Position numbers and translations under genes: made by a program. Below, piece after piece: positions 21,354 through 25,261 of a DNA stretch of 41,858 bases. Positions within the stretch are counted from its first letter, which is position 1. Each line of letters starts with the position of its first letter. Origin of the DNA: a virus; UHGV virus genome UHGV-0466892, one strand, 5' to 3'. The notes under the pieces were generated by a model that saw nothing but the letters and a program-made list of their open reading frames with translations, made no database searches and was not told where the DNA came from.

Positions 21354-21539
21354 TCAGTCCCGGACGAACGTAACCTTTGTGGTTATCATTCGCCGCACAA
21401 GGCGCGCCACTTCGCGTTGCATTTCATCAATTACTTTTGGCGTCAGTGGTTGATGCGCATATTTACGCTCAATCTCTGCAAAAATCCCGTTCAGCGCCTC
21501 GCTGCTTGGCGGGATAACTTCAACGTTTAATCGTGCCAT
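21354..21539 (-). CDS. small hypothetical protein
   Basis: 61-aa ORF downstream of the spanin genes; no recognisable motif. Confidence 0.3.
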   Translation of the reverse strand: MARLNVEVIPPSSEALNGIFAEIERKYAHQPLTPKVIDEMQREVARLVRRMITTKVTFVRD

Positions 21540-21798
21540 CGGTTTGTCCTGCCCTGTTGTTCTCGAAAGTCCTGATATCAGCCTTATCCCTGTTGCACTG
21601 TGCTAACGCTGACAACAACGCAACATTCAGGTTAAGGCTTGCTCCCCACGTAAACGGATCGGGTAAATCTGGCTGGGGTGTTTCAGCCGTCAGGTTGGCT
21701 GGTAACGGAACCACCGGAACTGGAACGTAGACCGTTCGCGTAGTCGTGCAGCCGCTTAACTGCGCCAGAAGGCACAAAACGAACAGCACAATCATCAT
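21520..21798 (-). CDS. o-spanin (Rz1-like outer-membrane lipoprotein), start at the internal MM
   Basis: Lipobox LAQLSGC after a hydrophobic leader (MMIVLFVLCLLAQLSGC), proline-rich body; begins inside the Rz gene in a different frame. Confidence 0.65.
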   Translation of the reverse strand: MMIVLFVLCLLAQLSGCTTTRTVYVPVPVVPLPANLTAETPQPDLPDPFTWGASLNLNVALLSALAQCNRDKADIRTFENNRAGQTDGTIKR

Positions 21799-22075
21799 CC
21801 GCAACAGCCACTTTGATATCTTCCTCGGTTCTCTGTGACTCCAGTGCGATCTGCTGCCTGGCATATTGATTTGTCTCCAGAATGATGTTCGTTATTGCTA
21901 CGGTGCGCAGGACATTCGCGGTGATGGTCTCAAAGGAATCAGCGCGCTGTTCTGCATCGTCAGCGCGCCGCTGTTCCTCCAGAAACTTTCCATGGTAATG
22001 ATTCGCTGACCAGACAAGACCACCAGCAATACAAGCAATAAACGTTAAAATGAGCGCCCAATAACTCATCTTCAT
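21683..22075 (-). CDS. i-spanin (Rz-like)
   Basis: 130 aa; N-terminal transmembrane helix then charged coiled-coil region; ATGA overlap with the endolysin stop. Confidence 0.7.
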   Translation of the reverse strand: MKMSYWALILTFIACIAGGLVWSANHYHGKFLEEQRRADDAEQRADSFETITANVLRTVAITNIILETNQYARQQIALESQRTEEDIKVAVADDDCAVRFVPSGAVKRLHDYANGLRSSSGGSVTSQPDG

Positions 22076-22686
22076 ACCAGCAGCGCCGCCCGCGCCTTGT
22101 TGTATCGGACCTTACGATCCTCAATACCGTTCAGACCGCCGTTAATGATGCGAGTAACACGATTAATATCGGCACCGTAGATCATGCAGCCTTTAGAGGT
22201 GTAGAACCATGCAGCTGAGCGCGCAGCCTGTAGTTCCTGTTCCAGTTGTTCAGGTGAAGTCACCAAATCTAACTTCAGAGCAGCCCCGCAGGTGCGATAA
22301 TTGTCGAGGCCAGTGATTTGAATTAACCCTCTGCCGCGATATTTCCAGCCGTCGCCGGGCGCTTTGTTACCCAGGCGGTTGCTATACACCAGATTGGCAA
22401 TAGCATCCTGACGAGCTGCATGTCCGGATGTTCTGCCAAGGGCATCAGCCTGCTGCTGTGTGATCCTCTTTCCGAACGTCGCCACCAGCGCAGATGGTGT
22501 GTAGTTCAAATTTTCAACTACAGCGCTAAAGCCACCAGACTCATGACCTACCTGAGCGATGAACATGGCCTGATCCGCGGGTGCTGTAATGCCGAATTCT
22601 TTCATCGCTGCATCTACTGGTTGAAACCAGCGCACAGCCAGTCCGGCGCTGATACCAGCCGCCTTTTGAAATAATTGTTGGTTCAT
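22072..22686 (-). CDS. endolysin, glycoside hydrolase family 19 (chitinase-like lysozyme)
   Basis: 204 aa; motif WKYRGRGLIQITGLDNYRTCG typical of GH19 phage endolysins; follows the holin genes. Confidence 0.85.
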   Translation of the reverse strand: MNQQLFQKAAGISAGLAVRWFQPVDAAMKEFGITAPADQAMFIAQVGHESGGFSAVVENLNYTPSALVATFGKRITQQQADALGRTSGHAARQDAIANLVYSNRLGNKAPGDGWKYRGRGLIQITGLDNYRTCGAALKLDLVTSPEQLEQELQAARSAAWFYTSKGCMIYGADINRVTRIINGGLNGIEDRKVRYNKARAALLV

Positions 22687-22967
22687 TAGTGCCTCAGATG
22701 ATCAACCAGGCGTGCAACGTTGCCTCTGACGGCCACCAGCACGGAAAGAAAAATAGTATTCGCCACGATAATGGGCCATGAGGAATGGGGATAAATCCCA
22801 CAGAGATAGGCCAACGGAACAGCACTGTATGTAACAGTAATCAGCCAGGCTAAACGTGAAACCCAAGGACGATGCCGCGAATCACCACGACGATAAAACA
22901 TCAGAGTAATAACAACACAAGCACATAACAGCGCGTTTATAGTTGCTGTCGGGTCATTTAGCTCCAC
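22686..22967 (-). CDS. holin/antiholin-like membrane protein
   Basis: 93 aa with 2-3 hydrophobic helices, between the first holin and the endolysin. Confidence 0.55.
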   Translation of the reverse strand: MELNDPTATINALLCACVVITLMFYRRGDSRHRPWVSRLAWLITVTYSAVPLAYLCGIYPHSSWPIIVANTIFLSVLVAVRGNVARLVDHLRH

Positions 22968-23340
22968 CTGAACCTCCCCGGCGCGTTATGAGCGCCACCA
23001 GCGACCCGATATCCTGATTATTCAGGAACGTCAGGATCTTAACGGCTAAAGCAGATACGATTACGGCACCAATGGCATCCAGAGGTTTATCACTGTATCC
23101 GGTCAAGCTTGCCAGCTTGGAGCCAACCAACCCAGAGCAAAGGATCCCGGCAATATACGACACGATAAAATATGCCAGTCGGCGCGATGCGCTCAGATCC
23201 GCTGCTGTTGCTATGTAGAATACAGTCCCTGCAAATGCGCCAAATACAACGCCGTAATCAGTTCCGGTCAGCAGTCCATAAACACTGGCACCCGTCAGGG
23301 CACCACCAGCCAGCCCAGTACCGGAAATTGGATCGGACAT
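22954..23340 (-). CDS. holin
   Basis: 128 aa, glycine-rich with multiple transmembrane segments; first gene of the lysis cassette. Confidence 0.6.
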   Translation of the reverse strand: MSDPISGTGLAGGALTGASVYGLLTGTDYGVVFGAFAGTVFYIATAADLSASRRLAYFIVSYIAGILCSGLVGSKLASLTGYSDKPLDAIGAVIVSALAVKILTFLNNQDIGSLVALITRRGGSGGAK

Positions 23341-23451
23341 TTAGCCCCCTCTTAATTGCTGTGAGTCCTCTCAGGTATGAGGGGAAATAGGCTCAGGCTT
23401 CACGGGTTGGATTTATCAACAAAGCACGTAGCGGATGATTACCGTGAGCCG

Positions 23452-23483
23452 GAAATAAAAAAGCCCCAGCGGGTGCCGGGGCG
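23452..23483 (-). terminator. rho-independent terminator (minus strand)
   Basis: GC stem around 23463-23482 followed on the minus strand by a T-run (complement of aaataaaaaa at 23452-23461). Confidence 0.5.
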
Positions 23484-23574
23484 AGTTATAGATAAGTGCA
23501 TGCTCTAGCAGCAAATCACTGTATTTGATATCGTTAAATCGCCAAAAATAACCCTATCAAACATGGAGAATTAT

Positions 23575-23724
23575 ATGAGTGAATCAAACAAACCATCTGG
23601 AGAAAATAAGCCTCAACCCGCACCACAGCCTAAACCGGCTCCACAGCCAGCCGAAAGAAATCTGAGGACAGGTTATACCTTTGTTGCCGATTCTGCTGAA
23701 AACATCAGAAAAAAAGGTAAGTAA
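23575..23724 (+). CDS. candidate small proline-rich protein (49 aa), uncertain
   Basis: ATG at 23575 with GGAG 7 nt upstream; MSESNKPSGENKPQPAPQPKPAPQPAERNLRTGYTFVADSAENIRKKGK; 3' end overlaps the convergent minus-strand gene by 20 nt. Confidence 0.25.
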   Translation: MSESNKPSGENKPQPAPQPKPAPQPAERNLRTGYTFVADSAENIRKKGK

Positions 23725-24274
23725 GTACTGAGATTACAAGTGCACAAACAGGGGTGAGGATTGTAGCGATCCTTACCCTTTCTAGTTCTCGGCCTATTCT
23801 GGCATTCTCTTTTTTACTCATTTCAGCCATTCTGGTTAAATCCGCAAGCCGGTAGCGCCGCAAGACGTTCAATGTTGAACGCTTTCCTGAAAATCCTTTC
23901 GACTCAAAACCAGTGTAATCATCTTCAGTAAACCCTTTATAGTCATCATGGTAAAGCGCATAGGGTGTCGATGACACGAGAGCTCGTGACCTTACAACGA
24001 GGACGCAGCGAACAAGATAAGCCGCACACATTGCCCAGTAGACTAAAAAAACAGACATTCCAGCGGTGAGGTAATCAAAACCTGTACGTTGCGTTAATAA
24101 CAAAAATGACGAGCCCACGCCAGCAATGAGTATACTCAATAACTTCTGGCCATTTTCTTTGTTTAGTGCGTTGGACTGGTGAATTTCGCGTATACAATCC
24201 TCGCCCTGCTTCTCCAGAAAAGCAACGAGTTCGTCGTCCGCATCCAAAAAGTAATCATCGGGTAGATTATTCAT
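23705..24274 (-). CDS. membrane protein of unknown function (cargo gene between Q and the lysis cassette)
   Basis: 189 aa; acidic N-terminal segment, two central transmembrane helices and a C-terminal hydrophobic anchor; ATG at 24274; flanked by terminator-like hairpins. Confidence 0.6.
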   Translation of the reverse strand: MNNLPDDYFLDADDELVAFLEKQGEDCIREIHQSNALNKENGQKLLSILIAGVGSSFLLLTQRTGFDYLTAGMSVFLVYWAMCAAYLVRCVLVVRSRALVSSTPYALYHDDYKGFTEDDYTGFESKGFSGKRSTLNVLRRYRLADLTRMAEMSKKENARIGRELERVRIATILTPVCALVISVLTYLFF

Positions 24275-24350
24275 TCCCCAACCTCACATCCTGTAATGCA
24301 TCAATTTTACCTGAATGTCTCGAACCTTGGTATTGCTGTCTCCAGAAACG

Positions 24351-24379
24351 CAAAAAACCCCACGGTGTTATCCGCAGGG
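24351..24379 (-). terminator. tR'-like terminator downstream of the late promoter
   Basis: On the minus-strand transcript CCCTGCGG-ataacac-CCGTGGGG forms an 8-bp stem (two G-U pairs) followed by TTTTTTG; the plus-strand version has mismatches. Confidence 0.5.
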
Positions 24380-24478
24380 CTTGAAACGAAGGCATTAACC
24401 CATCGTTGGGACAAAATTAACACAGATTCGGGAAAAGTAAATAGCCCAAGACAAAATCATAGGCTATCGCTATAGGCG
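24380..24478 (-). promoter_or_regulatory. probable late promoter / Q-utilisation region (pR'-like)
   Basis: About 100-bp AT-rich non-coding stretch immediately downstream of Q with weak -35/-10-like hexamers (TTTACT ... TAATTT), followed by the terminator. Confidence 0.35.
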
Positions 24479-25261
24479 TTACCGCGTTATCTGCTTAAGC
24501 TGTTTTTCGGCCCAGGACTCTTCGATATCAAATTTCGTGATCAGCAGGTCGTAGAATGGCTTAACAGACTTTTTCCAGGTGTCCAGGCTAATGGCGTCAG
24601 TAATCTGGCATACAGCAGCATAGGCTTCAGTCGACGGAAGTCGTTCATACCCACGCCCTCCGCAGCGCTTACAGTCAGCCAGAACAGGAACGCCCTGTTT
24701 CTCAGTAAGAGCCTGGTTCACTGCCTTGCCGCGCCCATGGCAATCACTGCAAGAAGCACTAACCACACCAGAGCCATTACACTTTTTGCATAGCACTTTG
24801 ATGGATTCTTTGACCTTCACCATCCCGGACACGGTCATTTTCCCTTCTGGCTTACGGAATTTATTGGTAAACACGTCAGCCTCAATGAAGCCCTGACCGT
24901 CACAACAATCGCACTGCTTCACGCTGGCAGCGCTGCGGGAATAGTCCTCAAAAGCGAAGGTGGCCAACTGGTGCATCACCTGAGGTTTAACCGCGGCACC
25001 GAGCTTACGCAGTGCGGCAACCTTGTCGCATTTTGTCATCGCGTACTCAGCCAGCAGACCGATCGCCCGATCCCGGTCGTTATTGCTTATGCCCATCTTG
25101 CCGAGGAAGGCGCTGTAACCCATTGCGGCGCGTTCCTGCGTCATGCCCATGGCAGCCATTATGTCGGTACCGGTCAGTGAATCGGAGGCGGTAGCGCGCG
25201 GAGAATCGCTAATCAGTGTGGATTTAGCGAAGTGGTATTTCACTGTGTTTTCAAGGTTCAT
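24479..25261 (-). CDS. Q: late-gene antitermination protein Q
   Basis: 260 aa; Cys-rich zinc-binding region (CDCCDGQG ... CKKCNGSG ... CSDCHGRG ... CKRCGGRG); located between RusA and the lysis genes as in lambdoid phages. Confidence 0.8.
   Translation of the reverse strand: MNLENTVKYHFAKSTLISDSPRATASDSLTGTDIMAAMGMTQERAAMGYSAFLGKMGISNNDRDRAIGLLAEYAMTKCDKVAALRKLGAAVKPQVMHQLATFAFEDYSRSAASVKQCDCCDGQGFIEADVFTNKFRKPEGKMTVSGMVKVKESIKVLCKKCNGSGVVSASCSDCHGRGKAVNQALTEKQGVPVLADCKRCGGRGYERLPSTEAYAAVCQITDAISLDTWKKSVKPFYDLLITKFDIEESWAEKQLKQITR

Follow-up and report, generated by a model that had tools for sequence, protein, structure and literature searches.

What does a lambdoid prophage keep between its antiterminator gene and its lysis genes, and to what end? 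The question is raised by the viral genome UHGV-0466892 (41,858 nucleotides (nt), the whole stretch being called the window here), a lambdoid prophage of Escherichia coli whose late region lies on the minus strand in the order Q, tR'-type terminator, an open reading frame (ORF) of 189 amino acids (aa), second terminator, two holins, GH19 endolysin and spanins. The 189-aa ORF encodes a predicted inner-membrane protein and is met at its 3' end by a convergent, proline-rich ORF of 49 aa. We describe the interval as an uncharacterised accessory cassette, whose new element is a conserved, translated proline-rich micro-protein serving as antisense partner. As to its role, we tentatively propose an autonomous two-gene cassette, or moron, that would act at the membrane in phage exclusion or abortive infection and would be held in check by the micro-protein, by the antisense transcript, or by both; we regard this as plausible, though short of probable.

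The small convergent ORF is a partner gene

An earlier note on this DNA had placed the 189-aa gene at the centre and mentioned the 49-aa ORF in passing, as a proline-rich frame overlapping the 3' end of the large gene. The ORF exists, the overlap measures 20 nt, and RefSeq annotates it in an identical E. coli prophage; its treatment as a side remark did not hold up, since it is a conserved, translated partner gene. A homologue lies convergent to the large gene and just downstream of it in all 83 loci compared (80 IMG/VR contigs, one E. coli chromosome and two phage records), with overlaps of 17–32 nt as estimated from the ends of tblastn hits. Across 50 distinct coding sequences (CDS) of the small ORF, the frame is kept despite insertions and deletions, the third codon position is the most variable, and the median pairwise ratio of non-synonymous to synonymous substitution (dN/dS) is 0.37 in frame versus 0.97 and 1.17 in the shifted frames. 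The encoded proteins share the pattern MS(E/Q)xNKP..E(N/S)KPQ, followed by a variable P/Q-rich stretch and (D/N)(F/L)x.x.R..VGDSA(D/E)..RKK.K.

The arrangement persists in far more distant relatives. In a Pasteurella multocida prophage, the downstream neighbour of a 177-aa homologue (29.6% identity) is a convergent gene of the same type, which is annotated and encodes 41 aa ending ..PVFIGDSVDIPKKK, and 158-aa relatives from environmental prophages (about 22–27% identity) have a convergent micro-ORF in 20 of 22 IMG/VR loci, as do all six inspected metagenomic loci of this subfamily. These micro-ORFs encode 25–60 aa and overlap the 3' end of the large gene by 28–65 nt; annotation had called them in one of six distant loci. 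Most distant micro-ORFs contain the core P-[VI]-[IV]-P-Q-P-x-P-(E/V)-(R/Y)-(R/K), typically P-[VI]-[IV]-P-Q-P-x-P-E-R-R, and a related element, PQP(x)(E/D)R(N/R), is retained in the enterobacterial small proteins. The peptide itself, and not just the DNA, is under selection, because the core lies outside the large CDS and arginine is written with both CGN and AGR codons (both seen in L235, a locus examined in detail), and because the entropy sums of the three codon positions are 9.6, 10.5 and 21.6.

Both genes are thus coding and under purifying selection, the small ORF is a real gene and the obligate partner of the large one, and the pairing with its convergent 3' overlap is conserved across distant bacteria. 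No recognisable domain was detected in the small protein with Pfam or NCBIfam, nor any PADLOC match at E ≤ 1; a tblastn search of phages with it returned nothing, probably owing to the low-complexity filter. A proline-rich ORF of 25–60 aa found from Enterobacterales to Pasteurellaceae and in environmental prophages is a functional micro-protein that annotation often misses.

A mobile cassette in a variable slot

The earlier note had named the Q-to-holin interval as a classic insertion point for cargo, and comparison with related phages supports the reading as cargo in a variable slot. With HK225, mEp237 and the E. coli KL53 prophage, the window has only 23386-23467 and 24340-24700 in common; the space between them is an empty slot of about 255 nt in KL53, without any gene, and holds a reverse-oriented 136-aa gene in HK225 and a 213-aa gene in mEp237. 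The insert of about 870 bp (about 23468-24339) has a GC content of 42–45%, against 50–54% in the flanks. Because the small ORF is a conserved, translated gene, the insert is a two-gene unit, mobile and compositionally foreign, which reached the slot of this lambdoid prophage by horizontal transfer. Of 5426 complete E. coli genomes, only 6 carry the interval at 99.8% identity or above; in two E. coli chromosomes (AR_0119 and CH468) the match is 100%. All elements named in the earlier note are there, with coordinates that agree exactly or to within a few bases; the slot and its edges contain the following.

24479..25261 (-): Q antiterminator gene, 260 aa, upstream edge of the slot (Pfam Antiterm PF03589, E 2.2e-45; PHROG 127, E 6e-104)
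24340..24478 (-): conserved late-promoter/tR' flank, with 80–87% identity to the sequence next to Q in HK225, mEp237 and E. coli KL53
24382..24355 (-): stem of the tR'-type terminator, with T-run to about 24345 (terminator scan; colinear with a rho-independent terminator annotated in HK225)
24304..24318 (-): predicted promoter of the large gene, ACATTCAGG then a TAAAAT -10 hexamer (24309..24304), about 30 nt upstream of the ATG
23705..24274 (-): gene of the 189-aa inner-membrane protein with three predicted transmembrane (TM) helices (PHROG 11870, unknown function)
23575..23724 (+): gene of the 49-aa proline/glutamine-rich, basic micro-protein (PHROG 14506, unknown function), convergent with the large gene
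23524..23574 (+): predicted promoter/leader block of the small ORF, with TGATATCGT (extended -10-like, 23526-23534), a conserved leader and GGAG at 23565-23568
23497..23513 (either strand): second conserved hairpin, between terminator and promoter block, of the GCCAGA..TCTGGC type, degenerate in the window (TGCATGC-TCTA-GCAGCA)
23453..23482 (-): predicted intrinsic terminator, closing the cassette in the direction of the late operon (stem 23482..23463 plus T-run; 8-bp stem with 7 GC pairs, T6 tail)
22954..23340 (-): first holin gene, 128 aa, downstream edge of the slot (Pfam Phage_holin_8, E 3.6e-34; PHROG 198)

The 80 enterobacterial IMG/VR loci have 41 distinct upstream neighbours, of which 28 match one of three unrelated Q families of Pfam (Antiterm 15, Phage_antitermQ 11, Phage_antiter_Q 2), and seven more are DUF1133 proteins, which we infer to fill the Q position. 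Downstream come holins of six Pfam families as well as lysozymes, and several types of endolysin. In the loci with typable neighbours the cassette always occupies the Q-to-holin interval, irrespective of the Q or holin family; the late promoter lies directly upstream of the large gene, which is without exception encoded in the direction of the late operon. The cassette is not bound to one lysis system, since holins of six families follow it.

The large gene encodes a three-helix inner-membrane protein

Hydropathy and charge predict an N-terminus inside the cell and TM helices at residues 45–62, 70–95 and 168–189, in agreement with the acidic N-terminal segment, two central helices and C-terminal anchor that the earlier note had described. 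The first 44 residues are acidic (11 D/E versus 4 K/R), and the segment 96–167, predicted to be cytoplasmic, is basic (14 K/R). There is no export signal, and the loop 63–69 and the C-terminus are minimal, so that the protein has essentially no periplasmic domain. AlphaFold2, run on an alignment of 48 sequences, gave long helices at 14–62, 68–92 and 134–188 with a predicted local distance difference test (pLDDT) score of 83.7, versus 51 from the single sequence. The three-TM architecture is predicted with confidence; helices 45–62 and 70–95 are predicted to form a TM hairpin, and the basic cytoplasmic segment to run into a long helix that continues as TM3.

The protein belongs to no known family, and the earlier note had likewise identified none. 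At E ≤ 1 it has no match in Pfam, NCBIfam or PADLOC, and its sole profile match is PHROG 11870, over its full length (E 6e-84). A search of PDB sequences with the family profile found nothing below E 0.6, and an Rfam scan of 23200-24600 found no family. A word-indexed search of 5.8 billion proteins returned 115 clusters, nearly all of exactly 189 aa, from Enterobacterales and labelled hypothetical; an exhaustive hidden Markov model (HMM) search of 1.84 billion representatives returned only 102 proteins, all of 100–250 aa and unannotated. The family is described in none of the papers returned by literature searches on its accessions, on PHROG numbers and on defence cargo between Q and holin. 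The earlier note had also seen a loose likeness to small effectors with two TM helices. Effector domains of the SLATT and PycTM type share with this protein small size, helical membrane character and a TM hairpin. The likeness has no statistical support: at E ≤ 1 Pfam gives no hit to the window protein, and a Pfam scan of 70 distant members gave isolated hits at about chance level (8xMP, PycTM and YLATT at E about 0.02, and DUF6249), the single PycTM hit having E 0.016. No nucleotide cyclase or sensor gene accompanies the cassette in any locus examined.

Homology to a holin or antiholin, which would have spoken for a lysis component, was found in no profile search of Pfam or PHROG, in which both adjoining holins score strongly. 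We reject a holin or antiholin identity on this ground, together with the six holin families nearby and the relatives located outside lysis regions.

Regulatory signals and a portable terminator/promoter unit

A terminator scan found five sites versus 2.1 ± 1.6 in shuffled sequences. The large gene is bracketed, as the earlier note had it, by tR' and a second terminator, both minus-strand hairpins with T-runs (stems 24382..24355 and 23482..23463); the second, however, turned out to be part of a portable unit common to unrelated reverse-oriented cargo. Of 48 distinct sequences upstream of the large gene, 34 have a TAAAAT-like hexamer at -42 to -34 (exactly TAAAAT in 28), a motif that is rare elsewhere in the 200 nt; the element ACATTCAGG-TAAAAT is kept in otherwise diverged loci, and a GAGG/GGGG Shine-Dalgarno sequence precedes the ATG at 24274. 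No -35 box is evident upstream of this gene. When viral contigs were scanned with its promoter motif, cassette loci and apparently random hits were returned, which lends no support to sharing of the promoter.

The most conserved DNA of the locus is the block upstream of the small ORF (TCTGATATYGTTAAATCGCCARAARTAACCACATCAAAYATGGAGAA..ATG, 23524-23577). It carries TG[AG]TAT at -53 to -46 in 36 of 47 sequences, and we predict from its sequence an extended -10 element (TGATATCGT), a leader and a Shine-Dalgarno site. Next to it, RNAalifold folds the GCCAGA..TCTGGC hairpin with five pairs, three of them with compensatory changes, and the terminator at the cassette end is likewise conserved with compensatory changes in 16 diverse loci. 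This terminator is predicted to shield the holin genes in the late-operon direction. Together, the conserved -10 hexamer before the large gene and the covarying terminator after the cassette argue for the autonomy of the cassette. The terminator scan found no plus-strand terminator after the small ORF, so transcription of the small ORF may extend in antisense into the large gene.

A portable unit (23453-23577, + sense; loci L101-L176) is made up of the terminator of late sense, the GCCAGA..TCTGGC hairpin and the promoter/leader block with TGATATYGTTAAATCGCCARAA. An exact-pattern scan located the promoter/leader block in 107 viral contig stretches, and 40 of the 79 loci read lack the large gene. 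In 35 examined loci of this latter kind the block has the same orientation, detected Q or holin homologues flank it as in the window, and unrelated reverse-oriented cargo begins about 45–50 nt downstream: proteins of 92–99 aa, zinc-ribbon proteins of 67 aa, a DUF2441 protein, several orphans and two truncated remnants of the small ORF. A working promoter and leader are supported by the conservation of the block across such differing cargoes. Partial matches to the 128-nt unit, mostly to its promoter-leader portion, occur in some 270 of the 5426 E. coli genomes. Such a unit may explain how cargo is exchanged in the slot while the holin and lysis genes stay insulated.

The commonest alternative cargo is the 92–99-aa family (MASFTVRVELVG.. 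/ MSTFTIRVELHNAD..; for example in L147, L108 and L127), one member of which has a sub-threshold Pfam match to GhoS (E 9e-4, 19.6 bits versus a cutoff of 21). GhoS is the antitoxin of the GhoT/GhoS membrane-toxin system. In eight loci (L106, L125, L128, L132, L134, L135, L142 and L150) a sequence resembling the end of a tRNA gene (..GAGTCGCACGCTCTAACCAACTGAGCTAAAGGGCC..) replaces the terminator about 70–115 nt upstream of the block, an indication that these phages may have tRNA genes between Q and holin, as Shiga-toxin (Stx) phages do.

Distribution and distant relatives

The family is found almost only in prophages, from very different hosts and habitats. Among 185,579 species-representative genomes eight carry it, all of them Enterobacterales, and three of the copies are truncated or frameshifted. 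Distant relatives are located where prophages typically carry accessory genes: antisense to the early-left (recombination) operon beside repressor or Cro-like genes, at a prophage end adjoining host genes, and after the tape-measure gene. The first of these sites corresponds in position and orientation to that of lambda sieB, antisense to the PL operon, and is also the place of rex. At a further site of this kind, in locus L093 (3298-7061), a 158-aa relative and its micro-ORF are convergent to genes of a Gabija-like OLD-family ATPase (577 aa) and a UvrD-like helicase (475 aa).

As for the decayed copies, the large gene is frameshifted and the small ORF intact in Leclercia adecarboxylata (L234, 3001-3560), and the large gene is truncated with no small ORF detected in Symbiopectobacterium and Yersinia pekkanenii (L232, L233); three loci are too small a sample to be read as decay of the toxin-antitoxin type. 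One further record stands out: PP818812.1 (L002), Actinobacillus phage vB_Apl-pPE4, has a lambdoid late region of enterobacterial style, and its tblastn score of 209 bits at 58.2% identity equals that of the 47.7-kb E. coli 'plasmid' CP100067.1 (H32). The host assignment of the former, or the plasmid status of the latter, may be questionable.

A possible exclusion system and its rivals

Under the reading that we favour, both genes would be transcribed in the lysogen from their own promoters, and the micro-protein, antisense RNA pairing or both would hold the membrane protein at a low level or in an inactive state. That protein would be the effector of exclusion or abortive infection at the inner membrane, as a pore or depolarising oligomer or by blocking DNA entry; it would act like Rex or SieB, with the wiring of a toxin-antitoxin pair. 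During the prophage's own lytic cycle, polymerase modified by Q and passing through tR' would raise the large mRNA and silence the convergent small gene. A large mRNA reaching the cassette terminator would carry a 3' untranslated part to which the small transcript is fully complementary. The two proteins might bind each other directly, the micro-protein through its basic tail and the large protein through its acidic N-terminal helix.

Several observations weigh against this reading. The Q-proximal, co-oriented placement in enterobacteria fits a late lytic function equally well. A scan of 22900-24700 for the sigma-70 consensus found no promoter, the predicted ones being drawn from conserved -10-like hexamers. 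The portable unit is shared with unrelated cargo and therefore says little about the specific function of this cassette. Only one relative (that of L093) adjoins a known defence system, and in the distant relatives the orientation relative to the neighbouring operon is reversed, so that no single transcriptional logic covers all members. Finally, neither protein matches PADLOC-DB 2.0 (2023) at E ≤ 1, and hhalign and Pfam reveal no homology to SieB or RexB.

The strongest rival is an accessory of late function, in which the membrane protein owes its production essentially to the Q-dependent late transcript and tunes lysis timing or blocks late superinfection or re-adsorption, the small gene serving only to keep it off in the lysogen. 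It would account for the position immediately after Q and tR' and the co-orientation in the typable enterobacterial loci, for the missing -35 box and consensus promoter, and for late read-through that would be antisense to the small gene. Yet the holins beside the cassette come from six or more unrelated families, the endolysins are of several types, and the membrane protein matches no holin or antiholin profile; homologues with the same micro-ORF are located well away from lysis genes, among immunity or tail genes and at the ends of prophages, and in many cases run antisense to the operon around them; and a purely late gene needs neither a conserved -10 hexamer nor a dedicated terminator. We therefore consider a late function unlikely.

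Less likely again is a pair devoted to addiction, in which the membrane protein is a toxin, the micro-protein or antisense RNA its antidote, and the outcome the stability of the prophage or cassette without any defence. The obligate pairing and the convergent overlap, as in 3'-overlapping type I systems, are what such a pair would show; truncated or frameshifted copies of the large gene occur in some genomes, one of which keeps the small ORF intact, and a RelE/ParE pair lies near the cassette in the Pasteurella prophage. The putative toxin, with 160–190 aa, three TM helices and a cytoplasmic part of about 110 aa, is nonetheless unlike any known type I toxin, and the antisense partner is selected as a peptide and not as RNA alone.

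A similarly low probability attaches to lysogenic conversion of another kind, with the protein modifying the envelope or physiology (transport, stress tolerance, host interaction) in a way unrelated to phages. The Q-to-holin slot classically carries conversion cargo, for example stx in Stx phages; one related phage has a TerB-like gene in the same interval, and a membrane protein of no known family would be compatible with such a role. Its lack of an export signal and of essentially any periplasmic domain speaks against it, as does the near-confinement of the family to prophages of diverse hosts and habitats, a pattern that speaks for a role centred on phages. With both genes under purifying selection, a passenger that is neutral or in decay is unlikely.

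Beyond an exclusion function for this cassette alone, it is possible, if doubtful, that the cassette is the founding example of a two-component system of Proteobacteria prophages, for phage exclusion or abortive infection and outside current toxin-antitoxin types, that joins a three-TM effector to an antisense-encoded P-[VI]-[IV]-P-Q-P-x-P-E-R-R micro-protein. Should the function be defence or resemble a toxin-antitoxin pair, the result would be a new architecture of prophage immunity, in which a sizeable membrane effector is governed by an antisense-encoded micro-protein. The micro-protein core (e.g. KPVVPQPQPVYR, QPVIPQPAPERR) recalls apidaecin-type proline-rich antimicrobial peptides (PVYIPQPRPPHPRL), a putative resemblance that serves as a lead only. 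By speculative extension of this analogy, the micro-protein might target a conserved machine such as the ribosome exit tunnel or DnaK, with the membrane protein as its partner or immunity factor.

Comparison with known systems

A moron, in the concept of Hendrix and Juhala, is an additional gene of lambdoid phages, equipped with a promoter and a terminator of its own and set between conserved neighbours. The cassette is like one in most respects: its neighbours are adjacent in relatives, its GC content deviates, it has its own predicted terminator and a conserved -10 hexamer, and the family occupies several typical moron positions. It differs in consisting of two convergent, overlapping genes, with promoters that are predicted. 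HK97 gp15 is a moron of superinfection exclusion (cited in PMC11364771). At roughly 870 bp, the cassette is well defined and self-contained.

Likeness to SieB of lambda and P22 and to RexA/RexB of lambda lies in their being prophage membrane proteins of similar size, and in the antisense placement of lambda sieB relative to the PL operon, which the 158-aa relatives share. SieB acts in abortive superinfection exclusion, and RexB is a membrane effector with a partner protein. Membership in either family was rejected, with hhalign probabilities of 0.3% for SieB and 0.2% for RexB and no Pfam hit; the topology is different, and the partner here is a proline-rich peptide of 25–60 aa encoded on the opposite strand.

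With type I toxin-antitoxin systems, the cassette shares a prophage membrane protein gene and a convergent transcript over its 3' end. The Bacillus prophage pairs txpA/RatA and bsrG/SR4 have 3'-overlapping antisense RNA; the known toxins of such systems have less than 60 aa and a single helix, and the antitoxin is non-coding. The type I definition does not fit a large protein of 160–190 aa (189 here) with an antisense gene that encodes a peptide under purifying selection, nor does type II, with its co-directional bicistronic operon and DNA-binding antitoxin, fit genes that are convergent in all loci and a small protein that has no recognisable domain. Tai/Ati of phage phi80 are an accessory pair with one partner expressed from the Q-dependent late operon, so that lysogenic and lytic expression differ (PMC11364771); these proteins are soluble and unrelated, act on tail assembly and are encoded upstream of the packaging genes.

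Downstream lysis genes

Beyond the first holin gene, the lysis region continues with two further assigned genes.

22686-22967 (-): second holin gene, 93 aa (Phage_holin_3_7)
22072-22686 (-): GH19 endolysin gene

The tandem, overlapping holin genes belong to different families (Phage_holin_8 and Phage_holin_3_7; 22686-23340, -) and precede the endolysin gene; they may form a two-component holin or a holin/antiholin pair. Further on, a 130-aa ORF with an N-terminal TM helix (21683-22075, -) overlaps a LysC/Rz1-type lipoprotein gene (21520-21864, -) and occupies the place of an Rz-like inner-membrane spanin, an assignment made from position alone. In the RefSeq record of the identical prophage the lipoprotein gene is annotated and this 130-aa ORF is left uncalled.

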